Shown: positions 8,076 to 63,362 of the stretch, piece by piece | Layout of the letters: every line of letters starts with the position of its first letter | Numbering within the stretch: position 1 is the stretch's first letter | From: Candidatus Nomurabacteria bacterium | Lineage (GTDB): Bacteria; Patescibacteriota; Saccharimonadia; JAGOAT01 | DNA: 64,000 bases | Reading direction: 5' to 3' | NCBI GenBank assembly: GCA_020639315.1 | Contig: JACKGM010000001.1 | Location: 225,878 to 289,877 of the forward strand | Position numbers and translations under genes: made by a program | The notes under the pieces: generated by a model | What the model was told of the DNA's origin: nothing | The model's input: the letters and a program-made list of their open reading frames with translations, nothing else | Database searches by the model: none

Positions 8076-8912
8076 AAATACTGGATCCCCCGTAAGTTCT
8101 CTGAACTTCGGAGGATGACAATGCTATGGATCCCCCGTAAACCCTTCGGGTTTCGGAGGATGACAAGACAAGGGACGGGTTTCGGAGGATGACAATGCCC
8201 TCTGTGTGTCATCTTCCAAATTTCCGTAGGAAATTATGGGAGATCCACCTCCCGTGTCATCTTCGGATTACCCGGAGGGTAATACCGGAGATCCAGTATT
8301 TGAATTGAATCCCAGTAATGCAAAATACTGGATCCCCCGTAAGTTCTCCGAACTTCGGAGGATGACAATGCTATGGATCCCCCGTAAACCCTTCGGGTTT
8401 CGGAGGATGACAAGACAAGGGACGGGTTTCGGAGGATGACAATGCCCTCTGTGTGTCATCTTCCAAATTTCCGTAGGAAATTATGGGAGATCCACCTCCC
8501 GTGTCATCTTCGGATTACCCGGAGGGTAATACCGGAGATCCAGTATTTGAATTGAATCCCAGTAATGCAAAATACTGGATCCCCCGTAAGTTCTCCGAAC
8601 TTCGGAGGATGACAATGCTATGGATCCCCCGTAAACCCTCTGGGTTTCGGAGGATGACAAGACAAGGGGCGGGTTTCGGAGGATGACAAGACAAGGGGCG
8701 GGTTTCGGAGGATGACAGGAGAAGGGTGGGTTTCGGAGGATGACAAGACAAGGGGCGGGTTTCGGAGGATGACAAGACAAGGGACGAGCTTCGGAGGATG
8801 ACAAGAGAGAGGCGGAGTTTCGGAGGATGACAAGAGAGAGGCGGAGTTTCGGAGGATGACAAGACAAGGGACGAGTTTCGGAGGATGACAAGAGAAAGGC
8901 GGGGTTTCGGAG
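8076..8912. mobile_element. Cluster of three abutting copies of the composite MITE/REP-like element (family 1). Approximate copy spans are 8076-8321, 8323-8568 and 8569-8912.
   Basis: Repeated AAATACTGGATCCCCCGTAAGTTCTCCGAACTTCGGAGGATGACA arm, inverted arm TGTCATCTTCGGATTACCCGGAGGGTAATACCGGAGATCCAGTATTT, and hairpins (tccgaa-c-ttcgga, attaccc-gga-gggtaat). No coding capacity. Confidence 0.75.
8644..8912. repeat. Tandem array of ~9 units of a 29-nt sub-repeat (GGAGGATGACAAGACAAGGGGCGGGTTTC and variants). It is a minisatellite embedded in the MITE-like element.
   Basis: Direct reading shows a 14-nt core TTCGGAGGATGACA alternating with a 15-nt semi-variable segment, nine times. Confidence 0.85.
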
Positions 8913-8918
8913 GTTATT

Positions 8919-8952
8919 TTGGACTAGTTTTGTTTGAAGATTGATATATAAT
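8919..8952 (+). promoter_or_regulatory. Putative sigma70-like promoter (TTGGAC-N17-TGATATATAAT) upstream of the giant gene at 8992. It is followed by a GGAGGG Shine-Dalgarno sequence.
   Basis: Hexamers read from the sequence. The SD ggaggg lies immediately upstream of ATG 8992. Confidence 0.3.
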
Positions 8953-8991
8953 ATTAGTTAAGCTTAAGGCAGATAGAATAGAGCTGGAGGG

Positions 8992-11900
8992 ATGGAAGAA
9001 AATAATAACAATCAAGTAGGAGCAAAAGCTAGAAAGCCAAGATTTACTCATTGGGTTCGTTCGGAGTGGCTGATTGCTGGGCTACTATTTGTGATTGGGT
9101 TGGGACTGTTCGCCTACCAAGGTAACAAACCAGAACAAATTACCGAGCAACCAGAACCAACTACTGTCCTGGAAGAAGGACAAGTCGCTATAGTCGGAGA
9201 CGAAATCCTGACCGAAGAAACCCTAGCAGGTTATGTTGAATACAATCAGATAGATCGAAATCAGGCAATCGATCAATGGGTGGATCTCAAGCGGATGCAA
9301 ATAGCAGCTGAACAGGTTGGGTTGGATCTAGTGACGGGATACACAACCCGAGTCGGGGATTACCCAGGAAGCTTTGATGATCGAGATATCGAGCTAGAAA
9401 ACCAGTTTTACAAAGAGGCATTGAGCGCAGAATTGGCAAGACAGCAAGCCGGTAAGCCAGTTGGTGGGGTAATGGTCTGGAATTTTATCAAATTGGGTAA
9501 TTCTGGTCAGTACGAGGTAGATCAAGAGACCAAAGACTATGCTTTTGCCCAAGCTAAAGACTATAAGTCAAGACTAGAATCGGGCGAAATCAAAATAGTG
9601 GATGCGGTTGCTGAGCAGTCACTTGATCCTAGAGTTAAGTTTCCGACTGTTGGTAGTATATCAGCAAGTTTTGGCTACTACCCAGATCAAGAGCTGGTAG
9701 ATACTCTAAGGTTTAATAGCAAAGAGGTATTTGATACAATTGGCTCTCAAGATATAGCTGGTATTAGTGAGATACTGACCTATTCAACCAGTCAATACCA
9801 AGAGAAGGATGGCAATATTGATGCTGGATATTACTTATACTATCTAGACAAAGCTAACCCAGCTAGACCCCAGATAGAGGAAGAATACAACAAGGCAGAT
9901 CAAGAGATTACAGTAACCATCAAGGATCGTGAGTCCCAAGAGACTGAAGCAGTGTCTTGGATCAGTGCCTTGGCACCAATAGCAGAAGCGGCAGATGCCA
10001 ATGGGATACCAACTCAGCAAGAACTCCATTGGCTTGTTCATTCCAACCCTACAGCTGCAGCTGCAGATTATGGAGTGGATCCAACAGTGTTAAACTTTGC
10101 CTTATATTTTGGGGTAGTGACTCTGGATGGTCAACTATATGATAGCGAGGTTCAATGGAAAATCGAAGGCTATCTTCCAGATCCGGAATATAAATATAAG
10201 GGTACTGATGTTTTAGAATGTCCGGACTGTGATGCTAGAATTTTCGGCGATGCTAGGAGTTTTGTCGCTCCCGACCCAAACAATATGTACCCGCCAGGGT
10301 ATGACCTGGGTCTACCTAGAATTGGTAATTCTGTCTCTACCACTACCTCGGATGGTAATTTTGACCTATTAAGAAATGACGGGTTAGTAATGGACTGCTT
10401 TGGGGCTGTCGCCCAGATCAAGGTGACGGCTACTATCCCAGCTATTGGTAAATCGATCACTACACCAGCTAGTGGTTTTAGAAATATTCTGAATACTACT
10501 ATTACTTATGATCGTTTTGACTTTACTTCTGATCCTGAGCCAGAAGAACCTGAACCAGCCGGGGACGCCGAGGTTGAGATCAAAAAATGGGTAATCAACG
10601 AGACAGAGACACCTGGTCAACCTCAAGATGCCAATACGGCTGATCGGGCAGTCAAGTTTGGTCCTGGTGAGTCTATTACCTATAAAATATCTGTTCAAAA
10701 TATCAGCCAGTATCAGGCAATCAATGTCCGTGTGACTGACAATGATTTGCCTACTCAGTATGCGGATTTTTCAGGCTGGAACGGGACTTGGTATGTCGGC
10801 AATTTGTCCCCAGGTACATATAAGAAGATTGAGATTAAGGGTACAATCAAGACTGAGTTTCAGGACTATGATTATTATACCAATACGGCTAGAGTGGATT
10901 ATCAATACAAGGTGCCTTGTACTGCTCAGGAAAAGTTGATACACGATATACCATATATATTAGCAAGCACATCGCCACCCCCTTGTCCCGATAAAATCCT
11001 ATCAGGTAGCGACGATGACCCAGCCAATATCAAGCCAAAATATGCTGATCTCAAGATCGTCAAGACCACCTATGACACTGACAATCAGACTGCCTATAAG
11101 GGCAAGCCAATCAAGTGGCGGATTAGTGTGACCAATAATGGCCCGGATTCAGCAGTTAGCCTAGTCAACGACCGTGGAGCAATTGTTCAAGACCGAGTAC
11201 CAGTCGAGAGTCTCCAGGGTGAAACAGCAAAATGGTATTGTAATCCCACAAACTATTGTCAACCCAATTCTGGTATAGTTACTAGAGCCAACCCAGTAAT
11301 TAAGACAGAAGTTTTTCTCAAGAATAGCTATGCCACGGTCGATATATTTATAGAGGGGGTAGTCGGTCCATATATCGATGGGGGTAGCAATGTCGAGACT
11401 ATTCCTACTCTTGAGATTTGTAACCCATCCAATGATTTGCTCGAAGTAGTCAGCGATACCTATGTACCATGGGACCCCAATGAAGAAGACAATACCTATG
11501 AACGCTCCTGTGTGCCGGTAGTGGTTTGTTATGACGAGGACGGTAATCAGCTGACCAATTATCCCGGTGTTCCCTTCCCTGATGAATATGTTCATATGGT
11601 CGGTGTGGACAATGAAGGAGATGACCTCTACAATCCAGATAATAGCAACCAAGTCTTTGATCTTAATGGCTATGATATTATCTGCCGATTGCCGGATCCA
11701 CCTCCCAAGGAACCGGGGACTAAGGTTTGTGATGTGATTGGATTTTATGAGGACGAAAAAGGCAACAAGACTGAGATCGAAGTCCATAGGGACTTATTCC
11801 AGGGGAGTGCCGCTGGTGCCGATACCACTGCGGTCGGCCACTATACTTTTGAGATTAGTTGCTATGAGACTACGGAGAGCCCGACTCATTCTAGTATCGA

Positions 11901-19980: not shown

Positions 19981-20857
19981 AGGAGTGCAGGTCATCGCTA
20001 GCATTGTCCTGGTAGGCTTAACTATCCTAGGAGGATACCACTACTGGCGATCAAATCAATCAGTCAGTGCAAAATTGATCCTGGAGGAGTATCAGGACTT
20101 TTATCATTTAGAAGAAAATCGGTACCTTGGTGACAAAGGAGAGGGAAGGTTGGATTTGATCCAGTTGGACGGAGACAGGCCTAGGGTCGATCAGTCGATT
20201 GATTATATCAGCTATTTTGTAATCCCTAGTCAGGTGATTATTTTTGACCAGGCTGGAGTCAGTGCATACTCTACTAGAGACTTTTCTAAGCAGAACCAAG
20301 ACGGTCAGTATATTCTGGGCAATCTTGACGGGGATAATATTTACCTTGATCAAGCTGGGAGCAATGACGATGATACTCTGGTCAGACTAGATTATAGGCT
20401 CAGGGGTGAACTTGTCGGTGAAGAGTTGGTGACCAGCTTGGAGGTAGCACCGATTTTTGCTAATATCGGTACCAATCATTATAGGCTGGTCTTTGATCAG
20501 TTGACCGCTACACTTGCAGTCACCCCGATCGACAAAGACTTTGAAGCGTCTGGTCAGACTGTCAGCTACAACAATGTCAAGACTTGGCGAATCGAGCAAG
20601 ATTATCTCGCGATTGACTTGTTGGATGATAGTGGTCAGAGATTTGTGGCTGAAGATTTGCTTGAGCTAAACACTACACCCTTGATCGGGCTTTGTGTTGA
20701 TTATCAATTGGGCAAGGATTACCTTTATCTAGATTATAAGACTAGACTTGATTTGCCAGCTGAGATCGATAATCAGTCCAAAGTTTATTGTCATCAAGAT
20801 AATATTTATATTTGGCTTGGACAAAAGCTATATGAGGCAAAAAGAGATGAAGTCTAG
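19970..20857 (+). CDS. Hypothetical N-terminally anchored protein (295 aa). The start overlaps the upstream stop by 11 nt (ATGGCAAATAG).
   Basis: ORF in the track begins at 19925. The internal ATG at 19970 (MANRGVQVIASIVLVGLTILGG) gives a signal anchor and an 11-nt overlap, as seen at other junctions here. No recognisable domain. Confidence 0.5.
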   Translation: MANRGVQVIASIVLVGLTILGGYHYWRSNQSVSAKLILEEYQDFYHLEENRYLGDKGEGRLDLIQLDGDRPRVDQSIDYISYFVIPSQVIIFDQAGVSAYSTRDFSKQNQDGQYILGNLDGDNIYLDQAGSNDDDTLVRLDYRLRGELVGEELVTSLEVAPIFANIGTNHYRLVFDQLTATLAVTPIDKDFEASGQTVSYNNVKTWRIEQDYLAIDLLDDSGQRFVAEDLLELNTTPLIGLCVDYQLGKDYLYLDYKTRLDLPAEIDNQSKVYCHQDNIYIWLGQKLYEAKRDEV

Positions 20858-23800
20858 ACTGTTGATATTCGGTATCCTGATAGTCGGAGTTTTTGGTCTG
20901 ATGCAGATGGTTCGACCTAGCTTGGCTGGGACTGAGCCTCCAACCCCTGAGCTTAGCCAAGAGGCATTTGACAAGGCTTTTAATCTTGAGCCCGACCAGT
21001 TTGAAGACTTTAAGACAGTCTATGGCAAGAGTGAGTATAGCCCCTTTTATGCCAAGGTTAGCCCAGCGACTCCCGAAGTCGGAAATCTTTGCTGGAAAAC
21101 AGCGGAGGAGACTGATACTGAGGCAGAGCCAACCCAATCCCAGCTAGAAGATCCTGAGTATCAGCAGTCCTTGGAGGATTGTCAGGATTGGTTGATTTCT
21201 CTCAATCCGTATTTAGCTAGAGAGATTTACCGGGATTATCTCAAGACTACCGATTGGTTCAAGGGCAGCGAATCACTGTCGGACAATGATCTGATCTATG
21301 GCAAGATGGGGGTAATGGTTTACTGCCAGGTATTGGGTCAAGATTATCAATTGAGCTTTGACGATGATAAGCAGAAGTGTTTAGAATCGATTACTGACTA
21401 TGATCAGACTGACGAAGCAGGGGTTTGTAAGGATCTAGAAGAGTTTGGGTACAATTGGGAAGATCAAGCTTGTAAGTATAGTCTGGAGTCATCAGATAAT
21501 TCTGAGCTAGATCAAGCTATAGATCAGCTTGACTTAGACCAGAACTCTAGTGCCGACGCTGGTGGTGGCCCTCCTGCAGGTAAAGTTTTAGGCAGAATAA
21601 ACGCTAGTGGGGAGTGTGAAGTAGACAATCCAATCTTGCAGTGGTGTCCACCGGTAGTGCTTGATGCGGCTGCTCCGACTGGCACTAGTGTCAGTGGCCT
21701 AGGGACTGAACCGAGAAAGGGCATACCTGATCCGCCCCGTAGCTCTGAGATTAGTAACAAGCCTGACGATTTGGGTGAGCGAGAACGCCCCGTCATCTCG
21801 ATCAAAAAATACGTCGGTCACACAGTAGATGATCTCAGTGATGCCCAAGACTCAGCTACAGCTGTCAAGTTCTATCCTGGTCAATCGATAGTCTATCAAG
21901 TAGTAATTACTCATCAGTCTGGAGCAGATGCGACCAAAGTAGTCTGGTCTGATGAAAACCTTGATGGATTTGTCTCAGGTGGACTGATGGAACTAGGAGA
22001 TTGGACTAGTGATACTCAAGTAGATGACATCTTCTCCTTCCCTCTCAAACAAGGAGAAGAGATTACCTTCTTAAGAGAAGGCACAATCTCCCTAGATGCT
22101 GGTCTCTTCGGTCTAGATCAAGAATCAGTTCTTAACTCAACTGCTGCCCTTGAAAACATCGCCAGTGTCGATGAACTCAATGATGCTGATCCTGGGATTG
22201 CTAGTAGTGATCCCGCTAATATCTTACCAATGCTTTCAGACCTCACCCTCCGTAAGCAAGTCTCCAACCTCACCGAAACCCCATTCCTCTCCCCAGGCAC
22301 AAGTCCCTACTACCTCAGTGATGGTCCTATCTACTATGATGCAGATAGTATAGACAATGCAGTCTCCTTCGGTCCTAGTGAAGAGATAGAGTACCGTATA
22401 GAGATAATAAACAACGGTCCAGACGAAGCCACCTCTATCAGCTTCACTGATCCTGATCTCCCAGATGAGCTAGTAGACTGGGAGTCAGACGGCTGGATCA
22501 ACGCTGAGACTGGTGAAACCGTATCCTCAGGAGATACCATCTTCCCAATCCCAGCCGAAGGAGCTCCGACTGAATTCCTCTGGCCTGAAGAGTCCAAGAC
22601 GATTGATCCTGAGACCAAAGCAGAAACCACAGTCAACAATATCACTGAAGGTAAGAGAGTCAGAATAGTCCTAACCAAGAAAGGTAGAATCAAGAACGAC
22701 CTAGCTAATACCGATTGGTTCCAGTCTAATACTGCTCACCAAAACACTGCAGAAGTCTCTACTATCAATCCAGAAACCAACTATGACAACAATACCAACG
22801 ATGCCTACATCGACCCCAAGGTCACAGACATCATCATCGGTAAAGTCGGTCAGACTGGTAATGACACTGGTCTAGCAGGTAAAGAACTAACTTGGACGAT
22901 TAGAGTAGTCAACAATGGTAAAGACTCAGCTATCTCTCTCGTAGACAATGGAGGAATCAAGCTAACCGACTACCTCAACCTCAAAGACACCTACAATGAA
23001 ACAGTTACCTATCAATGTGTCCCTGCCTATGCCTGCAGTGTCCCAACCGGAGAAATCAACTCCACTGACAATCCCGAAGGTATCCTAGACCTAGAACTCT
23101 ACCTCGGCCCTGGCTTTGGAGACATGGAGCAAGTAGACTTCATCGATATCCTCTCAGATGAGGAGCTGTCAGCCAACCAAACCGACACTACCAACAACAA
23201 CACCACCACCAACAACAACACTAACACCACTAACACCAATAACACCAACACCACCACCAACACTAACACTACCAACAACACTACCAACAACACTGACACC
23301 ACCCAAACCACCAATACTGATCTAACCACCCTCCCCGTCTGTGAGACTGGTAGATTCATCGGTATTAACAAGGCTACTGACACTACTACAGGCTTCAACC
23401 CCGATATCAACGAGGATGGCAATGGAGACCTCTATGTTCTCTTCAATACCAATTGCTTTAGCTCCTACCCTGACCTCAGCCACTTCGAGCTAACAGACCT
23501 CTCCCTTAGCAGTGATGAAGTAGTCAACTACCTCACCCAGTATCAAGGTGGTAAAATTGCTTACTATCAAACCCCTACTCACCTAAACACCACCAATCAA
23601 GTAGACATCCAAATCACCGCTAGACTAGCTGACCATGTCACCTATGGTGATGATGTCACTACTCAAGCAGTAGATGAGATCTGTAATCCTAGTGACAAGA
23701 ACAACCCTGATCAAAAAGTCCATGTCGAAAAGACCGAAACCGTAGCCTGGGAATTGTCACTAGACAATAACACCGCTCCCCTAAGATGTATCCCAGTAAT

Positions 23801-25163
23801 GCTCTGTTACAACGAAGATGGTCAAGCCTTAGCTAGCTATCCCGGTAAAGAAGGAGAAGACTTCTATCTCTCATTCGTCGGAGTAGACAATGAAGGTAAC
23901 AAACTCTATGATCAATCTCTAGATGAACTAATCGCTAGAGATGACTTAGCAGGACTAGATGTGATCTGTCGTAAGCCTACTACCTGTGAGCTTAAAGTAA
24001 CGCGGACGATAGTACTAGCCAATGGTACAGAAGAAACCACTGATGTCGAAGTCACCGAACTATTTGATGGCTCAGCTGCTGGTGCTGATACCACTGACCT
24101 CGGATACTACAACTTTAGCCTAGAGTGTCAAAACCTCGAAGACGGACAATCCCCCAACCTCACGATTGAAGTCATCCGCCGTCTCTTCGGTCCCTACTTC
24201 GCGATCGAAGATGGTTCAGCCACAGTGCTCGGAGAAATAGTCAAAGGTGTCTATCCTGAAGACAATGACCTAGACATCACTCGTCATACCCACATCCTGA
24301 CCGCTACCAATGAAATCTCTTCAATCTTCTGCTCACTAACCGAGATCATGGCAGCCGGAGAGAGTGTAGACTGTACTAGTCCTAGTGACCTAGCTGGAGC
24401 CGGATACCCAATCCGTCTAGACGGAGGTAGCAAGGACAACTTTGTCAATGTACTTGACTCAATAGAGAGTCTAATCGCAGAACCAGACTCCTCCCCCTAT
24501 GAAGTAGTTACTATTAACAACCTAAACCAAATCCCCCTTGACCTCAGTGATGGTAAGAGCCCAGACTTCGAACCTGATCCCAACTCCACCACTACCCCAG
24601 TCCCTTACCCCACCCTCTATGTCTATGATGGAGATCTAGAGATCTCAGCTAGTCAAGCTATGCACTACAATGCAGGTCTAGCTACTATCTACGTCAGGGG
24701 TAATGTCTACATCAATGGAGACATCATCAGAGATGACAATACAGTGATAGAAGACATAGATGAGTATCCCAACCTAGGTATTATCTCTACTGGCAATATC
24801 TACATCAGACCAGACACCTCCAAATCAGTAGAGACTCCCCAAGTAATTGACGCCAGTCTCTTCGCCCAAGGTATGATCGAAACAGCCTACCGTCAAACCA
24901 CTCAAACCCCAATCCCCGAATACTATACCAACCAACCCCTAATCTTCCATGGTACAGTAGCCTCCAAGGGAGATGAGAGTGTCCCAGGAGTCAAAGACCC
25001 AATCACCAATCAAGTCTATGCCTTCAAACTAAACAGGACCAATGTCTCAGTCACCCTAGGACAAGACTGTAACAATACTCAAGTCTCTGAATGCTTTGCA
25101 CCAGACAACTCAATCTTTATTGCTACTCCTCCGGGGTTTGAGGATCGGCTTAGCTCAGAGTGA
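20847..25163 (+). CDS. Giant modular surface protein paralog 3 (~1438 aa). It has an N-terminal signal anchor, an acidic Cys-containing unique region, shared module A, the 2.9-kb shared module and the shared C-terminal domain.
   Basis: Start moved from 20748 to the ATG at 20847 (MKSRLLIFGILIVGVFGLMQMV), which overlaps the upstream stop by 11 nt. The sequence from 22215 onward is identical to 15265-18107 and 30385-33315. Confidence 0.8.
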   Translation: MKSRLLIFGILIVGVFGLMQMVRPSLAGTEPPTPELSQEAFDKAFNLEPDQFEDFKTVYGKSEYSPFYAKVSPATPEVGNLCWKTAEETDTEAEPTQSQLEDPEYQQSLEDCQDWLISLNPYLAREIYRDYLKTTDWFKGSESLSDNDLIYGKMGVMVYCQVLGQDYQLSFDDDKQKCLESITDYDQTDEAGVCKDLEEFGYNWEDQACKYSLESSDNSELDQAIDQLDLDQNSSADAGGGPPAGKVLGRINASGECEVDNPILQWCPPVVLDAAAPTGTSVSGLGTEPRKGIPDPPRSSEISNKPDDLGERERPVISIKKYVGHTVDDLSDAQDSATAVKFYPGQSIVYQVVITHQSGADATKVVWSDENLDGFVSGGLMELGDWTSDTQVDDIFSFPLKQGEEITFLREGTISLDAGLFGLDQESVLNSTAALENIASVDELNDADPGIASSDPANILPMLSDLTLRKQVSNLTETPFLSPGTSPYYLSDGPIYYDADSIDNAVSFGPSEEIEYRIEIINNGPDEATSISFTDPDLPDELVDWESDGWINAETGETVSSGDTIFPIPAEGAPTEFLWPEESKTIDPETKAETTVNNITEGKRVRIVLTKKGRIKNDLANTDWFQSNTAHQNTAEVSTINPETNYDNNTNDAYIDPKVTDIIIGKVGQTGNDTGLAGKELTWTIRVVNNGKDSAISLVDNGGIKLTDYLNLKDTYNETVTYQCVPAYACSVPTGEINSTDNPEGILDLELYLGPGFGDMEQVDFIDILSDEELSANQTDTTNNNTTTNNNTNTTNTNNTNTTTNTNTTNNTTNNTDTTQTTNTDLTTLPVCETGRFIGINKATDTTTGFNPDINEDGNGDLYVLFNTNCFSSYPDLSHFELTDLSLSSDEVVNYLTQYQGGKIAYYQTPTHLNTTNQVDIQITARLADHVTYGDDVTTQAVDEICNPSDKNNPDQKVHVEKTETVAWELSLDNNTAPLRCIPVMLCYNEDGQALASYPGKEGEDFYLSFVGVDNEGNKLYDQSLDELIARDDLAGLDVICRKPTTCELKVTRTIVLANGTEETTDVEVTELFDGSAAGADTTDLGYYNFSLECQNLEDGQSPNLTIEVIRRLFGPYFAIEDGSATVLGEIVKGVYPEDNDLDITRHTHILTATNEISSIFCSLTEIMAAGESVDCTSPSDLAGAGYPIRLDGGSKDNFVNVLDSIESLIAEPDSSPYEVVTINNLNQIPLDLSDGKSPDFEPDPNSTTTPVPYPTLYVYDGDLEISASQAMHYNAGLATIYVRGNVYINGDIIRDDNTVIEDIDEYPNLGIISTGNIYIRPDTSKSVETPQVIDASLFAQGMIETAYRQTTQTPIPEYYTNQPLIFHGTVASKGDESVPGVKDPITNQVYAFKLNRTNVSVTLGQDCNNTQVSECFAPDNSIFIATPPGFEDRLSSE
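22215..25152. repeat. Copy 2 of the ~2.9-kb near-identical coding module. It carries the expanded TN linker at about 23170-23300.
   Basis: Direct comparison with 15265-18107 and 30385-33315. Confidence 0.9.
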
Positions 25164-25185
25164 TTTTCTGGAATCAGGCTAATGA

Positions 25186-25250
25186 GGGGGGGCATTGTCA
25201 CCCTCCGAATTCTCCTTGTCCTGTCATTCTCCAAAATCCCCTATTCCCCT
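25186..25250. repeat. Degenerate remnant of the MITE-like family 1 element in the short spacer between two giant genes.
   Basis: gggcattgtcaccctccgaattctccttgtcctgtcattctcc matches the gggcattgtcatcctccgaattctccttgtcctgtcatcctccgaag unit seen at 33590 and 34880. Confidence 0.6.
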
Positions 25251-25277: not shown

Positions 25278-28200
25278 ATGAAAAAGAGAAGTTTATATAA
25301 ACCAAATAAAAGTGAGGGAAAGTTGAGTAATACAAAGTTTAATTTGAGGCATTTACTACTAAGTCTAAGTGGTGTCTTGGTAGTCGTGGCTATCAGCATT
25401 GGGATAGTCAAATTCATCGACTATAGCAATCCCGTGGTCGTCAGTATTGACGGAGTCGAGATCCGAGAAAACACCTTTGACAAAAATATCGAGCTAGGTA
25501 AAGACTACGACAATGGTAGAGAAGACATAGTCAATGCCACAATCGACCTCGAAGCTTGGAAGAAAATCAACCAAAACCTCGGAGTTGTCCCTCCCGACTC
25601 CTTTATCATGGAGTATGCTAGTCGATATACCGAGCAGGCAGTCAAAGAAAACGTAATCCTCCAAAAGAACCTCTACAAATACGCCACCGAGCAAATGATG
25701 CTCAATCAATACTACGGGCTCTATGATGGCGCAGTATTTGTCTTCCCATATGCCAATTTTGATCAGGGAGCTACAACGGAAGAGCAAGCCTACGCCAAGC
25801 AAAAAGCTGAGGAGTACCTAGCGAGATTTTCTAGTGGCGAAGATCCCAGATCACTAATCGACGAGATCTATGCAGATAGGAGCCTAGAGCCAGCCGTCGA
25901 TGCCCAAAATCCATCGACAATCCTCGGATTTTACGAAGATCAGAGCCCCTATGATCAATACAGGATGGGCTACTCAGAGCTACTCAATGATATTTGGTCG
26001 ATCGAGAATCGTGGTACTAGTCAGATAGTCGATATCCCTGAAGATAGAGAAAATCGTTCTGGTGGATACTACTATTTCTACAATATCAATGATTATCAGT
26101 CTCCGAGGCTAGATATCCAAGAGAGCTATGATACAGAAGTCGAGAGAATAGCTACAGACTTGACTACCCAAGCAGACAAGATCAATCGAGTCGGTCAGAG
26201 TACGGTATCCTTCCTCGGTAATAAACTCAAGGATTTAGCAATCCAGCCAGCTTACGCCAAGGATACTGTCGAGGCTCATCAGTCTGGGCCAAGTGTGCTA
26301 TTAAAGCTGATGAACGATAAGAGCTATGAGGGTAGGACACTGATCGAGCGGTTCGCTGATGTCTCTGGTAGGGTATTGGGTAGCAATGGAGATCCTTACC
26401 CCAATGCTATCGTCAGGATTAAATACAAAGATGTGCTTAAGCAAAATTGTGCAGAGTGTGATAGTGCCTTTGTCGATGTCGGTAAGATTGGTTTGGGTTC
26501 ATCTACCAATGAAAACGCTCCTCGAGTAGACTACCGCAAGGCAGGTATAGGTAAGCTCCATGATACTCCTGAGATGCAGGGTTATCACGACTATGTCGAG
26601 GTGATTTCAGGGGAGAGTGGGTATTTCTCTCTATCTGCTATTGACATAGTGTTTGACTGTAATCGCGTCAAGACAGAGTACGGAGATGGTCATCCAATAG
26701 ATGTCAATATGGAAGCCTTGGATGTCTATAAAGATGCAGAGATATCACTGGGAGGGCTAGATAGTATCAACGATCAGATAGCGATAGTCGATACTGAGCA
26801 AGTAGGGGGTAATATCGACCTTGCTTTCGCCAAGCCAGAGCATGATAGTGGATACTTGGATCGACTAGCCAGCACAGTCGGAAGTATCTTCCAGCTCGCC
26901 CGGATACCTTTAGTCCAAGGGGCGCAAGGGGGTTATGGGGAGTTAAAACCCGATGAGAATAATCAACTTGTGGACCTAGAGGATAAGAGATTCGGCCATT
27001 ATAGGGATAAGATTCAATATTTTAGAGAGAAAAGTGAGATGAATCTTGACTCTAATTTCGCAGCTGAACAATATAATTCCTATGATCCAGCTGGAAACAT
27101 AGATAAAGAGACAATGGCTTCAATTTTACTTGATACAGTAAACGGATATCTTACAGACCCGGATTTCCAGATTAATAAAGATCAGGCGCAGGGTTTAGTA
27201 GGTCTTTTATTTGCATGTGATGTTATTTATCAGGAGGGGGATAATGAAAACTATTGGTACTATGCCAATCTTATAGACAGTGATGGTAATCATCCACTGG
27301 ACTGCATGTCGCATTTTGTAGTCGAGGATGTCTTGATGGCAATTGGGATGGACCTAAGGGTAGATAATGTCTATACCAACCCTACCTTCCCCCATGCTTT
27401 CCAGGTTGATTTTCGGGAACCCCCTGAGAATTGGCCTAATGATCGGGAAGGAACAGGATCAGCAAAGGATGGGTTTGTAGTATTTTGCGAGGCAACAGGT
27501 TACAAAACAAACGATGCTAGGGATAGGTGTATACTGGATAAGTCTGATACAGAGCAAGCAACCGACGAATCAGACGACGATAACTTTGCTGAACCTAACA
27601 AACTTGCAAGGCAATGTAGCTATTTTCTTTGGGAGTTAGACCAAGCAAGGTACGAAGCGCTAGAAGGTAGAGATTGTACGAGCCTTGTGGATAAGGGAGA
27701 AGTAGGTTCTCTTAATGGAATATCAAGACGGACATTATGTGTTGATCGTTGGGGGTATACGTTTGGTAGCAACCAATGTGTCCCACCTGATGGTGTAACA
27801 TACCCTTCTAGGCGGGAAAGTTTTTGTAAAAATATAACAAATTTCATATTTAGTAATAATAGATGCAATATGTCAGGATACGAGCAAGGCGCAAGTCTGG
27901 AGCTAGCAGAAGAGTATAAAAATGCAGTATTTGGAGATGCAGTTAATGCTTCTCCGGCTCAACTTTGCTCCGACTTTTACGTAGCATTAGAGATTATGCC
28001 ACCTGGGACATATAATAGTTATGAAATGCTTAGTCAATATGGGCTGACGAATGGGAAGTATGTCTGTGATCCTAACAATTATGAGTTTAACTCTGAGACA
28101 GAGAAATATCAACTTAAAGAGAGAGGCTCTTCCTCTGACAATGAGTCTCCTAACGACGGTGTTAGCCCTGAGGTAGGCTCTACTACAGAAGACCGCCGTT

Positions 28201-33510: not shown

Positions 33511-33996
33511 TGTCATCCTCCAGTTAAATACTGGATCTCCGGTATTACCCTAAAGGGTAATCCGAAGATGACACGGGAAGGGCATTGTCATCCTCCGAAT
33601 TCTCCTTGTCCTGTCATCCTCCGAAGTTCGGAGAACTTACGGGGGATCCAGTATTTTACATCGTGCATTGTCATCCTCCGAAGATCCGAAGGAGCTTACG
33701 GGGGATCCAGTATTTTGCATTTCTGGGATTCAATTCAAATACTGGATCTCCGGTATTTCTCTCTGGGTAATCCGAAGATGACGCGGGAAGGGCATTGTCA
33801 TCCTCCGAAGTTCGGAGAACTTACAGGGGATCCAGTATCTTGCATTGCCTTGAGATTCAATTCAAATACTGGATCTCCGGTATTTCTCTAAAGAGAAATC
33901 CGAAGATGACAGGAGGAGGGCATTGTCATCCTCCGAAACTCCGAAGGAGTTTACGGGGGAACCAGTATTTTGCATCGTGCATTGTCATCCTCCGAA
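33511..33996. mobile_element. Cluster of MITE/REP-like family 1 elements in mixed orientations (at least 4 arm pairs). It ends about 30 nt upstream of miaA.
   Basis: Multiple AAATACTGGATCTCCGGTATT...CCGAAGATGAC arms and reversed TGTCATCCTCCGAAGTTCGGAGAACTTACGGGGGATCCAGTATTT arms. Confidence 0.75.
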
Positions 33997-34767: not shown

Positions 34768-35079
34768 AGATTCAAATACTGGATCTCCGGTATTTCTCTA
34801 AAGAGAAATCCGAAGATGACAGGAGGAGGTGGATCTCCGGTATTACCCTCCGGGTAATCCGAAGATGACAGGAGGAGGGCATTGTCATCCTCCGAATTCT
34901 CCTTGTCCTGTCATCCTCCGAAGTTCGGAGAACTTACGGGGGATCCAGTATCCCTGTATTTACAGGTATTCAATTCAAATACTGGATCTCCGGTATTTCT
35001 CTTTTAGAGAAATCCGAAGATGACAAGAAGGGCATTGTCATCCTCCGAAGTTCGGAGAACTTACGGGGGATCCAGTATC
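34768..35079. mobile_element. MITE/REP-like family 1 cluster downstream of miaA.
   Basis: Same arm, hairpin and sub-repeat signatures in both orientations. Confidence 0.75.
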
Positions 35080-37509: not shown

Positions 37510-38050
37510 AAATACTGGATCCCCCGTAAGTTCTCCGAACTTCGGAGGATGACTAATGCGCGAAATACTGGTTCCCCCGTAAACTCCTTCGGAGTTTCGG
37601 AGGATGACAAGACAAGAGAGAGTGTCGGAGGATGACAATGCCCTTCCCGTGTCATCTTCGGATTTCTCTAAAAGAGAAATACTGGAGATCCACCCTCTCC
37701 TGTCATCTTCGGATTACCCGGAGGGGAATACCGGAGATCCACCTCCTCGTGTCATCTTCGGATTACCCGGAGGGTAATACCGGAGATCCAGTATTTGAAT
37801 TTGGTATTAAAGTAATGCGAAATACTGGATCCCCCGTAAGTTCTCCGAACTTCGGAGGATGACTAATGCGCGAAATACTGGTTCCCCCGTAAACTCCTTC
37901 GGAGTTTCGGAGGATGACAAGACAAGAGAGAGTTTCGGAGGATGACAAGACAAGAGAGAGTTTCGGAGGATGACAAAAGAAGGGTGGACTTCGGAGGATG
38001 ACAGGACGAGGGGTTTCGGAGGATGACAATGCAAAGCCTGGATTCGGAGG
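37510..38050. mobile_element. MITE/REP-like family 1 cluster. It includes a ~5-unit 29-nt sub-repeat array at about 37895-38040.
   Basis: Same signatures. The array reads ggaggatgacaagacaagagagagtttc repeated with variants. Confidence 0.75.
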
Positions 38051-43025: not shown

Positions 43026-43029
43026 AGGT

Positions 43030-43161
43030 AGTCATCCTCCGAAACCCGCCTCTCTTCTGTCATCCTCCGAAGTTCGGAGAACTTACGGGGGATCCAGTAT
43101 CCGGCATTGTGCATTGTCATCCTCCGAATCCTCATAGAGGATTACAGGGGATCCAGTATTT
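43030..43161. mobile_element. MITE/REP-like family 1 element (two reversed arms) between rodZ-like and recA.
   Basis: tgtcatcctccgaagttcggagaacttacgggggatccagtat and gtcatcctccgaatcctcatagaggattacaggggatccagtatttt. Confidence 0.7.
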
Positions 43162-43240
43162 TGCATTAGAGTTATGTTTGCTATATATTCGTATTTGTAT
43201 TACAATATAAATCAACAGTATATTTTAATCAGGAGGAGTT

Positions 43241-44705: not shown

Positions 44706-44720
44706 GAGAGTATAAATGCG

Positions 44721-45175
44721 AAATACTGGATCCCCCGTAAGTTCTCCGAACTTCGGAGGATGACAAGACAAGGGGCGGGTTTCGGAGGATGACAATCCTC
44801 TCCCTGTCATATTCCAAAATCCTGTAAGGATTTATGGGATATCCAGTATTTGAGTTGAATCCCCGGAAATGCAAAATACTGGATCCCCCGTAAGTTCTCC
44901 GAACTTCGGAGGATGACAAGACAAGGGGCGGGTTTCGGAGGATGACAATCCTCTCCCGTCATATTCCAAAATCCTGTAAGGATTTATGGGATATCCAGTA
45001 TTTGAGTTGAATCCCCGGAAATGCAAAATACTGGATCCCCCGTAAACCCTCTGGGTTTCGGAGGATGACAAGACTCTTCCTGTGTCATCTTCGGATTTCT
45101 CTAAAAGAGAAATACCGGAGATCCAGTATTTGAATTTGGTATTAAAGTAATGCGGAGATACTGGGTCCCCCGTAA
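44721..45175. mobile_element. MITE/REP-like family 1 cluster. A duplicated ~155-bp unit spans 44721-44875 and 44876-45030.
   Basis: Same signatures. The two units are near-identical. Confidence 0.75.
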
Positions 45176-48063: not shown

Positions 48064-48089
48064 GACTAGATTGAAAATTTAGAAATGCA

Positions 48090-48346
48090 AAATACTGGAT
48101 CCCCCGTAAGTTCTCCGAACTTCGGAGGATGACAAGACAAGGGGCGGGTTTCGGAGGATGACGATGCCTCCTCCCCGTGTCATCTTCGGATTTCTCTAAA
48201 AGAGAAATACCGGAGATCCAGTATTTGGATTGAATAATGAGGAATGCAAAATACTGGATCCCCCGTAAGTTCTCCGAACTTCGGAGGATGACAAGAGATG
48301 AGTCATATTCCAAAATCTCGCAGGGATTTATGGGATATCTAGTACT
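48090..48346. mobile_element. MITE/REP-like family 1 cluster.
   Basis: Same signatures, with forward arms at 48090 and 48252 and a reverse arm at about 48213. Confidence 0.75.
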
Positions 48347-51119: not shown

Positions 51120-51149
51120 GCTGTAGGCACAAACGACTTAAAATGCGGG

Positions 51150-51343
51150 GATACTGGATCCCCCGTAAGTTCTCCGAACTTCGGAGGATGACAATCCTCT
51201 TCCCGTGTCATCTTCGGATTACCCGGAGGGTAATACCGGAGATCCAGTATTTGAATTGAATCCCATAAATGCAGAGATACTGGTTCCCCCGTAAACTCCT
51301 TCGGAGTTTCGGAGAATGGCAGGAGAGAAACGGGGGTTTCGGA
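51150..51343. mobile_element. MITE/REP-like family 1 element downstream of valS.
   Basis: gatactggatcccccgtaagttctccgaacttcggaggatgaca...tgtcatcttcggattacccggagggtaataccggagatccagtattt. Confidence 0.75.
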
Positions 51344-53724: not shown

Positions 53725-53879
53725 GCATAACAATCCTGCAAGGTGTCACCGTACAAAACGAAGCATTCATGGTGTGGTTGAGGTAAGAGTAAGGTTTTCG
53801 GTCACAAAATGTCTGCAAGGTGTCACCTTATAGGGTGGGCCGGGGGAGGGTTGGTTTTTGTTTTGGGGGTGGCGTGGTG

Positions 53880-54458: not shown

Positions 54459-55450
54459 TTGACCATAGTAGTCCAAAGCTGGTAAATACTGAAGAGATTG
54501 AGTTTGAACTCAGTCTGAGGCCTCAAAGGTTCAATGAATACATTGGTCAAGAAAGAGTCAAGTCAAGTCTTGACTTGGCGATTCGAGCCGCCAAAAAGAG
54601 AAATCAGCCGATAGACCATGTGTTGCTCTATGGGCCTCCCGGTCTGGGTAAAACTACTCTAGCTCAGGTGATAGCCAATGAACTAGGGACTAGCATCAAG
54701 ATTACTAGTGGGCCAGCTATTGAGAAGGCGGGTGATTTAGCCGCAATTTTGACCAATCTCGAGCAGGGGGATGTCTTGTTTATCGATGAGATTCATCGAA
54801 TGCCTCGTCAAGTAGAGGAGATACTATATTCTGGCATGGAAGATTTTGTCTTGGATATTATGCTAGGTAAGGGGCCTTCAGCTCAAAGTGTTCGGGTCGA
54901 TCTGGCACCCTTCACAGTCGTAGCAGCTACTACCAAGTATGGAGGATTGTCGGCGCCTCTGAGGGATCGGTTTGGCTTGATTCATCATTTGGATTTTTAT
55001 TCTGAGTCAGAGATTGCTAGTATTTTGGAGCGTTCGAGTAAGATTCTTCAGGTAGATAGTGAACGCTCAGTCTTGGAAGTCCTTGCGGGTCGATCTAGAT
55101 TAACGCCACGGATTGCTAATAGACTTCTAAAGCGAATTAGAGATTATGCCGATGTTCATGGTCAGGGGAGGGCTACCCCAGATATCGTTAGGGACTGCCT
55201 GGATCTACTTGAGATTGATAGTCTGGGGTTAGACAAGAGAGACAGGAGACTAATGAAGGTCATAAGTGAATATTATGGAGGAGGCCCAGTCGGACTAAGT
55301 GCATTAGCAGCGACCATGCATGAGGAAACTCAAACTATTGAAGATGTTTATGAGCCTTATTTGATGCAGATTGGATTTATCAAGCGGACACCTCGAGGTA
55401 GGAGCTTAACCTCAAAAGGGGAAGATTATATTAAACTTGTTCTCCCCTAA
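54455..55450 (+). CDS. ruvB: Holliday junction ATPase RuvB.
   Basis: Walker [15 protein letters not shown], Walker [10 protein letters not shown] and the RuvB C-terminal winged helix. Confidence 0.9.
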
Positions 55451-56004
55451 GTTCTCCGAACTTTTGGGGTGATAATGCCTGAGATACTGGATCCCCCGTA
55501 AAATCCTTTGGATTTTCGGAGGATGACAAGACAAGGGGCGGGTTTCGGAGGATGACAATACCCCCTCCCGTGTCATCTTCGGATTACCCGAAGGGTAATA
55601 CCGGAGATCCAGTATTTGAATTGAATACCAGAAATGCAAGATACTGGATCCCCCGTAAGTTCTCCGAACTTCGGAGGATGACAATGCACGATGCAAGATA
55701 CTGGATCCCCCGTAATCCTCTATGAGGATTCGGAGGATGACAGGAGAGGGGCGGATTTTCGGAGGATGACAGGAGTTGGGTCACCAAACCAAATTTCCAG
55801 CTCCTCCTTGGGTCACCAAACCAAATTTCCAGCTCCTCCTTGTGTCATCTTCCAAAATCCCGCCCCCTCCTTCCCGTGTCATCTTCCAAAATCCCGCCCC
55901 CTCCTTCCCGTGTCATCTTCCAAAATCCCGTAGGGATTTATGGGAGATCCACCCCGCTGTCATCTTCGGATTACCCGAAGGGTAATACCGGAGATTCAGT
56001 ATTT
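55449..56004. mobile_element. MITE/REP-like family 1 cluster with a distinct sub-repeat set (31-nt gtcaccaaaccaaatttccagctcctccttg x2; 33-nt tgtcatcttccaaaatcccgccccctccttccc x3).
   Basis: Read directly. Confidence 0.75.
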
Positions 56005-56175
56005 ATAGACCCAACACCCTGGCTTACCACTAAATTCCTGACCTATACTAGTACTAGCCACCTTTACTCCTTCTTCATATCAAAGGATATGACTCAGTCT
56101 TAAAGAAGACTATTACTTAGTCCAGGACCAAGAATTTATTGGTGGCAAGACAAAGTGTTGGGTCTATAAGTATGC

Positions 56176-56181
56176 TATAAT
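56176..56181 (+). promoter_or_regulatory. TATAAT 6 nt upstream of ATG 56188 (leaderless).
   Basis: tgctataatttttttATG. Confidence 0.4.
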
Positions 56182-58871: not shown

Positions 58872-59452
58872 CGTCATTCCCCTTGTCCTGTCATCCTCCG
58901 AAACTCCTCCTCGCATCGTCATCCTCCGAAACTCGCCCCTTGTCTTGTCATCCTCCGAAACTCGCCCCTCTCCTGTCATCCTCCGAAACTCCGAAGGAGT
59001 TTACGGGGGATCCAGTATTTCGCGCATTTACAGGTATCCAACTCAAATACTGGATCTCCGGTATTACCCTCCGGGTAATCCGAAGATGACACGATAAGGG
59101 TCCTGTCATCCTCCGAAACCCACCCCTTGTCTTGTCATCCTCCGAAACTCCGAAGGAGTTTACGGGGGATCCAGTATTTCTGCATTAGTCATCCTCCGAA
59201 GTTCGGAGAACTTACGGGGGATCCAGTATTTTGCATTTGCTAATGTCCCAATCCCGGGATTCAATTCAAATACTGGATTTCCGGTATTTCTCTTTTAGAG
59301 AAATCCGAAGATGACAGGAGGGGGTGGGTCTCCCATAATTTCCTAAAGGAAATTATGGGAGATGACGTGAAGAGGGGGGCGGAATTTTGGAACATGACGA
59401 GAGAAGGCTAGGCCTCGTATAAATCCCTAAAGGAAACTTAAACTATGACAAT
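58872..59452. mobile_element. MITE/REP-like family 1 cluster. It includes a reversed array of GTCATCCTCCGAAAC cores separated by ~14-nt variable segments, and a perfect 15-bp palindrome TCTCCCATAATTTCC-taa-AGGAAATTATGGGAGA.
   Basis: Read directly. Confidence 0.75.
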
Positions 59453-59809
59453 GCAAGCCCGATTTTATTTTGAAATTGTATATATAGAATTGTAACAAAA
59501 TAGTATTTGCCTTAGCAAGCATGAGCAGTAATTATAGACCTAACACCCTGACTTATAGCAAGCTAAAAAAAACCAGACTTTTGACCCAACTCTAGAGTCT
59601 ATAAAGCTAGTTTTCTATAGTACAGCTCAAATTGTCCAGTTTTGGGTTGAGCTTGCTATATCTAAGGATAAGCCTCTCTTTAGAAAGAGAACTATTACTT
59701 AGTCTAGGGTCTAGGAATTTATTGTGGCAAGACAAAGTGTTAGGTCTATAAAGATTTGGTTTTATTGGTAGTCTAATATATAATCATTGGAGTAGCCTAG
59801 GCTACTGGT

Positions 59810-59980
59810 TAGACTTGTTCCTTAAGTAAGGTTTTCGGTCCCAAACCGTCTATCTTGGACTATAATAATCTTTTCGTTTTATCACCTTAACCATGTTAGG
59901 ACTCTTTATAGGAAAGATGATTCTAGTCCCAAACTAGACAATTTTGGTCTCAAAAATTACTAGGAGTAACTCTATTAGAC
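59810..59980. repeat. Degenerate copy of the family-3 element / conserved ~170-bp intergenic module (about 80% similar to 35231-35395).
   Basis: Shared strings tagacttgttccttaagtaaggttt...ttggactataataatctttt...attttggtctcaaaaatta. Confidence 0.5.
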
Positions 59981-61644: not shown

Positions 61645-62096
61645 AGGTCCCCCGTAAACTCCATGGGTTTCGGAGGATGACTGGACCCTTATCGTGTCAT
61701 CTTCGGATTACCCGGAGGGTAATACCGGAGATCCACCCTCTCCTGTCATCTTCGGATTACCCGGAGGGTAATACCGGAGATCCAGTATTTGAGTTGGATA
61801 CCTGTAGATGCGGGATACTGGATCCCTCGTAAACCCTCCGGGTTTCGGAGGATGACAGGACAAGGGACGAGTTTCGGAGGATGACAGTACCCTTTTTGTG
61901 TCATATTCCAAAATCCAAGAGGGATTTATGGGATATCCAGTATTTGAATTGAATCCCAGAAATACAAAATGCTGGATCCCCCGTAAGTTCTCCGAACTTC
62001 GGAGGATGACAATGCGAGGACGAGTTTCGGAGGATGACGATGCGAGGAGGATTTTCGGAGGATGACGATGCCAAGGCTGATTTCAGAGGATGATTA
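61645..62096. mobile_element. MITE/REP-like family 1 cluster with ~4-5 29-nt sub-repeat units.
   Basis: Same signatures. Confidence 0.75.
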
Positions 62097-62173
62097 ATGT
62101 GAGAGATACAAGTCTATTGATTTTCTGATTTTAATAGTCTACTATAAAGCTAGTGCTAAAACAAAAATAAACT

Positions 62174-63292
62174 ATGATCAAGCTTAAATCACTATTTATC
62201 CCTCATCACGGGAACCTACACAAACCCCATTTGACTAGGTGGTCTATGCTATCCGTTTTTGGGCTAGTGATTATCGGTATGCAGTTGGCCTTCAATATAG
62301 CTGTGTCAGGTCATCCTGGGGTATTGGGTTATGCTACCAATATTGATACCAGTACTTTAAATTCACTAAGCAATGCTCAGCGAACTGCCAATGGCCTACC
62401 AGCCCTAGCCTACAATCAAACCTTGGCTAATAGTGCCTATCAAAAAGCTTTAGATATGATCAACAACAACTATTGGGCGCATGTTTCGCCGAGTGGTGTT
62501 AGCCCTTGGTATTGGTTTGGGGCTGCTGGATACAGCTATACAAGTGCTGGAGAAAATTTGGCAAAAGACTTCAATACTAGTAGTGGAGTAGTCAATGCCT
62601 GGATGGCAAGCCCTACTCATAGGGCAAATGTCTTGGGTAGCAATTTTACAGAAGTTGGTTACGCGGTGGTTAATGGGACTTTGCAAGGCCAACAGACTAC
62701 TCTAGTAGTAGCACATTATGCCACACCGGTCGCTATAACCACTCCGGCGGCTAGTCCAGTTCCAGCCCAGCCTGTGCCTGCTCCTGTGGTAACACCTCAG
62801 GTAGTACAGACCCCAGTCGTTACCCAGACCCCTATACCACAACCAGCTAATGAAACTCCAGTCGAAGAGACTCCAACACCAGTAGTAGAGCAGAAAGCTA
62901 GTGTACTTGAAGAGCCAGAGCTCAAGTATGATTTGTTGCAATATCTAAAGAATCCGACTAGTAGCTATGGGGTTTATAAAGATCAGCCTGCTTTGAGCTG
63001 GGATACTGACTCGGTGAGCCTGGATCCTGTCGATCTGAGTCAGAATAGTAGCTGGATGGATCAGACTGTTTCTAGACTAGAGGCTAACTTGGCTAGCTAT
63101 AATTGGGCAATCCGACTAAGTCTACTCTTGCTTTTGCCACTGCTTCTGATAATCTCTGTAGAGTTTGCTGTAGTCTATAGCAGAAGACATATCCATCGCT
63201 CAAATCATCATCACCACGCTTTTTTGAAGGCGACCTTGGTGATAGCACTGATTGTAACCTTGCTCCATAGTGGTAGCGGGGTGATCGGATAA
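62174..63292 (+). CDS. CAP/SCP/PR-1-like domain protein. It has an N-terminal TM, a Pro/Val/Thr-rich linker and a C-terminal TM anchor.
   Basis: CAP domain block YQKALDMINNNYWAHVSPSG...NAWMASPTHRANVLGSNFTEVGYAV. Confidence 0.65.
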   Translation: MIKLKSLFIPHHGNLHKPHLTRWSMLSVFGLVIIGMQLAFNIAVSGHPGVLGYATNIDTSTLNSLSNAQRTANGLPALAYNQTLANSAYQKALDMINNNYWAHVSPSGVSPWYWFGAAGYSYTSAGENLAKDFNTSSGVVNAWMASPTHRANVLGSNFTEVGYAVVNGTLQGQQTTLVVAHYATPVAITTPAASPVPAQPVPAPVVTPQVVQTPVVTQTPIPQPANETPVEETPTPVVEQKASVLEEPELKYDLLQYLKNPTSSYGVYKDQPALSWDTDSVSLDPVDLSQNSSWMDQTVSRLEANLASYNWAIRLSLLLLLPLLLIISVEFAVVYSRRHIHRSNHHHHAFLKATLVIALIVTLLHSGSGVIG

Positions 63293-63310
63293 TTCGGTTA
63301 CTGTATAAGG

Positions 63311-63362
63311 AATCCAGTATTTCAGGTATTAATCATCCTCCGAAACCCAAAGGGTTTAAGGG
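63311..63362. repeat. Solo fragment of the MITE-like family 1 element.
   Basis: ggaatccagtatttcaggtattaatcatcctccgaaacccaaagggttt. Confidence 0.5.

Follow-up and report, generated by a model that had tools for sequence, protein, structure and literature searches.

Family A, a probably selfish REPIN-like repeat family expanded through the intergenic DNA of a Saccharibacteria-like genome

How a bacterium with what looks like a reduced genome comes to carry hairpin-forming repeats in almost every intergenic region is the question raised by a 64,000-nt stretch of the assembly GCA_020639315.1 (contig JACKGM010000001.1, positions 225,878 to 289,877), hereafter the window, i.e., the whole stretch of DNA analyzed. 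The repeats, termed family A, are probably selfish, non-coding, and non-autonomous elements, built like the doublets of repetitive extragenic palindromic sequences (REPs) known as REPINs or the bacterial interspersed mosaic elements (BIMEs), with a BOX-like internal minisatellite; they would have been moved in trans and were amplified locally. The original prediction, of a composite non-autonomous family akin to REPs or MITEs (miniature inverted-repeat transposable elements), is supported by the reduced host, by the empty sites of a sister lineage, by dispersed copies, and by the lack of any rRNA, tRNA, or Rfam match.

The basic module of family A is an arm of about 45 nt. A covariance model (R1), built on an alignment of 21 distinct arms (A1), detects 63 arms in the window at a cut-off of E <= 5e-5, and a regular-expression catalogue of the same window lists 60. 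All 63 lie in the intergenic loci reported before, and the coding DNA of the window contains no credible arm by the covariance model. The arms are accompanied by 38 half-arm sub-repeats (28-29 nt), and together they form 13 loci. With at most one mismatch, the terminal motif AAATACTGGATC occurs 46 times (0.43 expected) and the alpha-arm motif TTCGGAGGATGACA 65 times (0.03 expected). Family A amounts to 4,962 nt, i.e., 7.8% of the window and 61% of its intergenic DNA; the predicted figures had been more than 50 arms and about 5 kb, or ~8% of the window. It contains 62 of the window's 123 GGAGG pentamers and 29 of its 38 GGATCC sites. With four further families (B-E, described below), the short non-coding repeats reach ~10% of the 64-kb window, or 18% of the part with ordinary genes and 78% of intergenic DNA.

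Each arm follows the layout [AAATACT]GGATC-NCCNR-TA-[perfect 5-7 bp hairpin]-T(Y)CGRAG(G)ATGACA, and three classes can be distinguished: alpha (CCCCGTA ... TTCGGAGGATGACA), beta (TCCGGTA ... TCCGAAGATGACA), and gamma (TCCCATA ... TTGGAAKATGACA). The original prediction recognized alpha and beta arms correctly and overlooked gamma; its statement that every alpha arm contains GGATCC/GATC holds for most of them, the exceptions being four alpha arms that read GGTTCC and lack GATC. There are 30 terminal and 3 internal alpha modules, 16 and 4 beta modules, and 3 and 4 gamma modules. Alpha-type modules are opposed to beta or gamma in every case, and never to alpha. The minimal complete unit is a doublet of ~104 nt (e.g., 51149-51252, 34977-35080, and 45026-45131) that forms a long hairpin, closed by a stem from its 12-nt inverted termini; for doublets of 104-137 nt the folding energy comes to ~-0.42 to -0.48 kcal/mol per nt. 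These termini are perfect and the best-conserved part of the element, and extend to ~19 nt with one indel allowed. As predicted, they constitute terminal inverted repeats: the ends of units carry AAATACTGGATC in either orientation. AAATACT and AGTATTT(T) stand on the two sides of the doublet stem. Directly 5' of every hairpin stands (G/A)TA followed by A or T, comparable in position, not in sequence, to the conserved GTAG-type tetranucleotide that precedes the REP palindrome as the cleavage/recognition site of REP-associated tyrosine transposases (RAYTs).

Units at the same locus are co-oriented in 15/15 adjacent comparisons and are joined tail to tail by a linker, GAATTGAATCCCAGTAATGCA, that is conserved across loci. 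Polarity by locus is mixed (7 plus, 6 minus), whereas the genes lie almost all on the plus strand. Tandem Repeats Finder (TRF) reports periods of 247, 152, 127, 49, 34, 32, and 28-29 nt. The nested or tandem units of the original prediction appear at 8075-8689 (247 nt x 2.5 copies) and its zero to nine copies of a ~29-nt sub-repeat at 8642-8913 (29 nt x 9.4), while the unit described as a 155-bp duplication at 44721-45030 is indeed tandem, with a period of 152 nt (2.4 copies, 44714-45074). Its thirteen loci do share one set of modules throughout, although two of them (25186-25250 and 63311-63362) are degenerate fragments. The 29-nt sub-repeat corresponds to an end module cut short, in which a core of 14-15 nt is constant and the other part semi-variable; the "spacers" of the arrays are 14-15 nt long, purine-rich, and drawn from a handful of near-identical variants. 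Such arrays occur at ~10 loci, every one attached to alpha arms. Two ORFs lying on the repeats (8481-8891 and 33568-33891) were rejected as genes, given that they have no Pfam match and that the 29-nt period is not a multiple of 3. As a separate observation, the sequence at internal beta-beta junctions, GATCCACCTCC, looks by eye like the 3' end of 16S rRNA (GGATCACCTCC), and the arms carry CCTCC on the opposite strand.

The hairpins are conserved as pairings rather than as sequences. At least 10 distinct perfect Watson-Crick stems are found between invariant flanks, and in alignment A1, where the stem measures 6-7 bp, 93% of cells are paired, with double-sided changes in 41 cells (12.4 in shuffles) and no one-sided (G-U) change. 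When the partner column is shifted by one position, pairing falls to 54-57%. The hairpins of the original prediction are thereby confirmed, with covariation. Since the covariation is exclusively of the Watson-Crick type and sense and antisense folding energies are equal, the constraint appears to act on DNA or on both strands, not on one RNA. Strand-specific RNA structure was ruled out by the equal strand energies, the absence of G-U pairs, and the mixed polarity relative to genes. Rfam 15 yields no family A match at gathering thresholds or at E <= 1 (its sole match is tRNA-Gly), and an origin from rRNA or tRNA, which the original prediction had considered as an alternative, finds no counterpart among rRNA, tRNA, or Rfam families.

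The history of family A can be followed in a sister lineage (GCA_017983775.1 and three Logan assemblies) that is syntenic with the window over 33.9-63.3 kb, with identities of 96% for RecA, 92% for RNase Y, and 65-79% for genes at the DNA level. Presence/absence differences between related genomes, to which the original prediction had pointed, are found at 9 of the 11 shared intergenic regions: these nine sites are empty of family A in the sister, with gaps of 0-90 bp, and measure 215-1,293 bp in the window. The 11 shared gaps add up to 5,984 nt in the window vs 1,450 nt in the sister. By the arm covariance model, the sister lineage carries only three arms in ~36 kb, constituting one doublet after valS and one doublet with a sub-repeat after RNase Y. 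The window has clusters at both of these sites, and the flanks are conserved; after RNase Y, a single 135-nt doublet (L007 7341-7473) lies exactly where the window has the cluster 61645..62096. The same-site copies at valS and RNase Y imply that insertion of family A predates the lineage split. Family A is accordingly an inheritance from the common ancestor, and of the two lineages the window's alone underwent the massive expansion. Between the lineages, alpha arms show 97% identity, compared with a nucleotide identity of only 65-79% for genes.

Insertion has also altered gene ends. The C-termini of GatD and RuvB are now encoded by inserted repeat DNA. At the end of gatD (37450-37466), an inserted block of ~775 nt that includes the cluster 37510..38050 changed the C-terminus, GatD ending in ...LGAL before the stop codon vs ...LLS in the sister, and the ancestral end CTGAGCTAA survives at 38229-38237. 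RuvB (end at 55436-55450) finishes in ...KLVLP, its stop codon lying inside a degenerate alpha arm, and the ancestral ruvB end ATGCTATAA is found at 56172-56180, just ahead of the next gene. In the sister, miaA overlaps murT and a gap of 7 bp separates ruvB from bPH; in the window, the genes of each pair (miaA-murT and ruvB-bPH) stand ~700 bp apart. The target-site duplications that might be expected at such sites are represented by one candidate, a 5-bp direct repeat TAGAG (43023-43027 and 43167-43171) around 43028-43166 in the rodZ-recA gap; the gatD junction has only 2 bp (CT) and the ruvB junction none, and composite clusters blur the ends. In co-directional gene pairs, a cluster starts 4-45 nt past the stop codon, with the next gene's conserved promoter downstream of the inserted DNA (e.g., TTCGCA-17-TATAAT at 38245-38273). 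Elsewhere, two clusters lie between convergent genes, one adjoins a tRNA gene, and one occupies a divergent promoter gap. At the valS locus, the window and sister copies alike are in decay. In the sister's valS-cadherin gap (L001 16729-16996; L001/L003/L008), all four single-nucleotide polymorphisms (SNPs) among strains fall within the 92-nt family A doublet of the 268-nt gap, two of them breaking hairpin stems, and none falls in the flanking DNA; this suggests hairpin-associated mutation or relaxed constraint, the numbers being small.

A metagenome scan found family A on only two short contigs (L005 and L006), where the same families adjoin genes foreign to the window. These copies mark family A as dispersed, in line with the dispersed-repeat reading of the original prediction, and an assembly artefact was ruled out because the two independent short-read contigs carry the same arrays. 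Exact or gapped scans of 185,579 reference genomes with the alpha arm gave no hit, nor did scans of viral contigs for family A, and distant blastn searches found no match in plasmids and phages. The literature contained nothing relevant on such repeats in Saccharibacteria or the candidate phyla radiation (CPR).

The dispersing unit would be the doublet of ~104-135 nt, as suggested by the single doublets of the sister lineage, and a transposase encoded outside the window would mobilize it in trans. Occupancy of formerly compact sites is seen directly in the comparison with the sister. Once landed, elements grow in place by tandem duplication or by slippage between constant cores, as shown by near-identical co-oriented tandem copies, fractional copy numbers, and periods from 28 to 247 nt. 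They would survive where harmless, between a stop codon and the next promoter, occasionally replacing the last codons of a gene. Several points weigh against this account. No transposase domain, including Y1_Tnp, is present in any window ORF, as the original prediction had already noted for transposases; no regular target duplication occurs at the junctions examined beyond the TAGAG candidate; and the conserved linker makes the exact boundaries of the mobile unit ambiguous. To our knowledge, RAYTs have not been described in Patescibacteria. The empty sites of the sister, which is a single outgroup lineage, could in principle represent loss rather than gain. Finally, families B-E look like TA-flanked MITEs of the type moved by DDE (Asp-Asp-Glu) transposases, which shows the lineage to have had DDE activity.

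As to the enzyme, there is a tentative leaning towards a hairpin-recognizing single-strand transposase of the HUH/Y1 (His-hydrophobic-His, single-tyrosine) type, RAYT- or IS200/IS605-like, because conserved flanks enclose a covarying perfect hairpin, orientation alternates as in BIMEs, singlets and half-arms are many, regular target duplications are absent, and copies persist at orthologous sites. The competing possibility, rather doubtful in our estimate, is a classical MITE, i.e., an internally deleted DDE insertion sequence whose terminal inverted repeats (AAATACTGGATC) would be the binding sites of a transposase from elsewhere in the genome and whose hairpins would be by-products of a palindromic build. 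It is favored by the crisp inverted termini (12 nt perfect and best conserved, ~19 nt with one indel), by the TAGAG candidate around 43028-43166, and by the four co-resident, mutually nested TA-flanked families, which point to cut-and-paste transposases active in the lineage. However, the other junctions show no regular target duplication, and a DDE transposase does not require that at least 10 stem sequences should all be perfectly paired. Nor does it accommodate well the frequency of singlets and half-arms, the imbalance of terminal alpha arms (30) and terminal beta or gamma arms (19), or orthologous copies kept since the lineage split, which are more typical of REPINs.

Host benefit is a less probable explanation, in which the elements would be kept as two-way terminators or insulators, or as mRNA-stabilizing 3' hairpins, between packed genes. 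Such side-effects are known for REP and BOX (PMC3049150; PMC3337134), and the position of most clusters, 4-45 nt past a stop codon and upstream of the conserved promoter of the next gene, would suit them, as would the A-tract/hairpin/U-tract arrangement of AAATACT and AGTATTT(T) around the stem and the 97% identity of alpha arms across lineages whose genes retain just 65-79%. However, the sister manages the same gene order with 9/11 sites empty, terminator-like sites are not enriched (16 vs 14.0 +/- 3.7 in shuffles), and the U-run after the stem is interrupted (AGUAUUU(U/G)). Polarity is mixed among mostly plus-strand genes, the cluster 58872-59452 occupies a divergent promoter region, valS copies decay in both lineages with sister-strain SNPs breaking hairpins, and the complete lack of G-U pairs speaks against selection on RNA; a consensus scan of the window found no promoter enrichment either. 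Spread of a few ancestral copies by ectopic recombination, gene conversion, and replication slippage, with no transposition at all, is very unlikely: the bulk clearly stems mainly from local tandem amplification and two loci are ancestral, but at least nine newly occupied compact sites, including the last codons of gatD and ruvB, would stay unexplained, as would the copies beside unrelated genes on L005 and L006. The regular 28-29-nt period, with its constant 14-15-nt core and semi-variable part, might recall clustered regularly interspaced short palindromic repeats (CRISPR) or the RNA repeat array of a type III toxin-antitoxin system. CRISPR arrays alternate repeats of 23-55 nt with unique spacers of about the same length, and cas genes are usually found close by. 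Here the "spacers" are 14-15-nt near-identical variants, the arrays are always attached to alpha arms, the window ORFs include no cas or toxin gene, and no Rfam family matches, which effectively refutes this idea.

The preferred account of a selfish repeat moved in trans may be taken further, at a correspondingly lower probability. Family A could be a REPIN-like population in a CPR/Patescibacteria episymbiont, copied by a domesticated HUH transposase (RAYT- or IS200-like) via hairpins of single-stranded DNA, passed on vertically from before the lineage split, and possibly co-opted as two-way terminators. This extension is speculative and on balance unlikely; if true, it would extend such systems for the first time beyond the classical phyla and would mean that ultra-small genomes tolerate a fourfold intergenic expansion and rewritten gene 3' ends. 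Irrespective of the enzyme, the kind of element is known from other bacteria, whereas family A itself is new and its density unusual; it adds a repeat family, not a principle, in a phylum where none had been described. Genomes of CPR/Patescibacteria are regarded as streamlined, and the sister with the same gene order has almost no repeats. In a census of RefSeq genomes, made with a different detection method, the highest MITE content was ~1.2% of a genome (bioRxiv 10.1101/2024.01.18.576219). The pair of lineages constitutes a natural before/after experiment on the invasion of a minimal genome by small mobile DNA, and it can address operon splitting (miaA-murT, ruvB-bPH), stop-codon replacement, and a possible supply of terminators or promoters. 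In addition, such repeats will break short-read assemblies of metagenome-assembled genomes (MAGs) of this kind.

Table 1. Family A loci and co-resident repeat families of the window. A, B, and G denote terminal alpha, beta, and gamma arms (lower case, internal modules), s denotes half-arm sub-repeats, angle brackets give orientation, and slashes separate units.
Feature	Position (nt)	Strand	Modules and build	Context
A cluster	8076..8912	+	A> a> s> <g <B / A> a> s> <g <B / A> a> s x8; two 226-nt units and a third unit ending in a 9.4-copy 29-nt array	between 211-aa ORF and 1309-aa DUF11 surface-protein gene
A, degenerate fragment	25186..25250	-	two reversed sub-repeats	3' of giant gene 20748-25163; paralogous to 33581-33625 via 2.9-kb duplication of the giant gene's 3' end
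A cluster	33511..33996	-	<s B> <s <A <A B> <A B> <A <s; 127-nt period x 2.4	after giant gene 25278-33326; overlaps only a spurious TTG extension of miaA (likely start ATG 34027)
A cluster	34768..35079	-	B> b> <s <A B> <A	4 nt past miaA stop; 8-nt miaA/murT overlap in the sister lineage
A cluster	37510..38050	+	A> A> s> <b <b <B A> A> s x4	after gatD
A cluster	43030..43168	-	<s <A <A	rodZ stop to recA promoter; sister site empty
A cluster	44714..45175	+	A> s> <G / A> s> <G / A> <B, then truncated alpha arm; period 152 nt x 2.4	after 165-aa bPH-domain gene
A cluster	48084..48346	+	A> s> <B A>, then degenerate gamma arm	between 303-aa gene and tRNA-Gly(UCC)
A cluster	51141..51343	+	minimal doublet A> <B (51149-51252, 104 nt), linker, decaying alpha arm, sub-repeats	convergent valS/cadherin-like gap; orthologous to sister-lineage element L001 16810-16901
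A cluster	55436..56004	+	A> s> <B / A> A> s> ... <s <s <g <B; 32-nt and 34-nt tandem sub-repeats	inserted in last ruvB codons
A cluster	58872..59452	-	<s <s <s <A B> <s <A <A B> g>	divergent gap, LTD-domain gene (-) / RNase Y (+)
A cluster	61645..62096	+	s> <b <B A> s> <G A> s> s>	after RNase Y
A, degenerate single alpha-type arm	63311..63362	-		after CAP-domain gene
Family B	38064-38231, 45232-45398	opposite orientations	163-nt MITE, 19-bp inverted termini TTAACCCTGTTGCCATATA, TA/TTA flanks	window pair 98% identical, third copy on L006 97.6%; 45232 copy nested in family D element
Family C	35229-35396, 59808-59975, L005 1003-1167		~166-nt MITE, termini TAGACTTGTTCC...GGAACAAGTCTA	copies 84-89% identical; 35229 copy nested in family D element
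Family D	35089-35441, 45186-45517, 59552-59662		termini TATAGCAAGYTAAAAA...TTTTGAGCTTGCTATA, TA flanks	59552 copy uninterrupted, 107 nt; the other two carry nested C and B
Family E	56003-56171, 59525-59760		palindromic, ~167 nt, TATAGACCCAACACCCTG...GGGTCTATA	second copy holds family D element

The inventory of intergenic DNA in the original prediction was right as to family A and missed the four further MITE-like families in the remainder (Table 1), which fill most of the intergenic DNA left by family A. In four co-directional gaps, the order is fixed: stop codon, family A, TA-flanked MITE, promoter. The right end of a family D element at 35430-35441 reads TATAAT directly upstream of the murT ATG, and could act as an outward promoter for this gene.

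The window genes encode RecA, FtsK, RodZ, MurT/GatD, RuvAB, RNase Y, ValS, TsaE, and several giant DUF11-type surface proteins. An identical copy of the window RecA (43241-44239) is NCBI MCB9834616.1, which bears the name "Candidatus Nomurabacteria bacterium", although RecA and RNase Y alike have their nearest relatives in Saccharibacteria; the label is probably a misclassification within Patescibacteria. On the evidence of these relatives, the host is a reduced CPR/Patescibacteria (Saccharibacteria-like) MAG, which agrees with the reduced genome assumed in the original prediction. The giant DUF11 genes 20748-25163 and 25278-33326 have 2.9 kb in common at 99.7% identity and a further 430 nt at 98.6%; the duplication takes in their 3' ends and the first 18 nt downstream (25164-25181 = 33327-33344), and it is very recent or possibly a collapse/expansion of the assembly. 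A motif, (CT)GCAAGGTGTCACC(GTACAAA), is found four times in two intergenic regions (7969-7988, 8046-8058, 53738-53757, and 53815-53827; the GCAAGGTGTCACC motif with at most two mismatches gives 5 hits vs 0.99 expected) and may be a regulatory site or a small structured element. The region 7965-8010 resembles the sister-lineage region upstream of ruvA (ACACCGTACAGA...TATGTCATAATC; L007 1146-1346). Avoidance of GGATCC or GATC as restriction sites outside the repeats was ruled out, as GATC is over-represented there (381 vs 223 expected).

Among the known systems, the closest likeness of family A is to the REP/REPIN/BIME elements of Proteobacteria, which are mobilized by RAYTs; it is a likeness of anatomy, with no claim of REPIN/RAYT membership. 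The definitions of REPIN and tandem REPIN match family A: a short palindrome with conserved flanks, inverted pairs that yield a hairpin doublet, tandem doublets in alternating orientation with characteristic linkers, extragenic position and abundance, A and T runs around the doublet, orthologous persistence, and common singlets or partial units (PMC3337134). Family A differs in having no sequence similarity to REP, in its CPR/Patescibacteria host, in its longer arms (~45 nt) of three classes with a fixed alpha-vs-beta/gamma polarity, in half-arm arrays of up to 9 copies, and in the absence of a RAYT gene from the window. The pneumococcal BOX element (boxA-boxB(n)-boxC) likewise has complementary end modules enclosing a variable number of internal modules, clusters with and inserts into other small repeats, and modifies gene ends (PMC3049150). 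The sequences are unrelated and the likeness is only architectural: the internal module of family A is a truncated end module of 29 nt, in contrast to the 45-nt boxB, its end modules are multiplied, and whole composites stand head to tail. With the Correia elements, the Neisseria NIMEs, and other bacterial MITEs, family A has in common a size of ~100-150 bp, terminal inverted repeats, intergenic position, a high degree of base pairing, and many copies, and some of these MITEs contain internal tandem repeats, such as the minisatellite-containing MITE of P. gingivalis (PMC4596501). Correia elements have 26-bp inverted repeats and a TA duplication, whereas family A has termini of 12-19 nt, no regular duplication at its junctions, and internal hairpin stems that covary.

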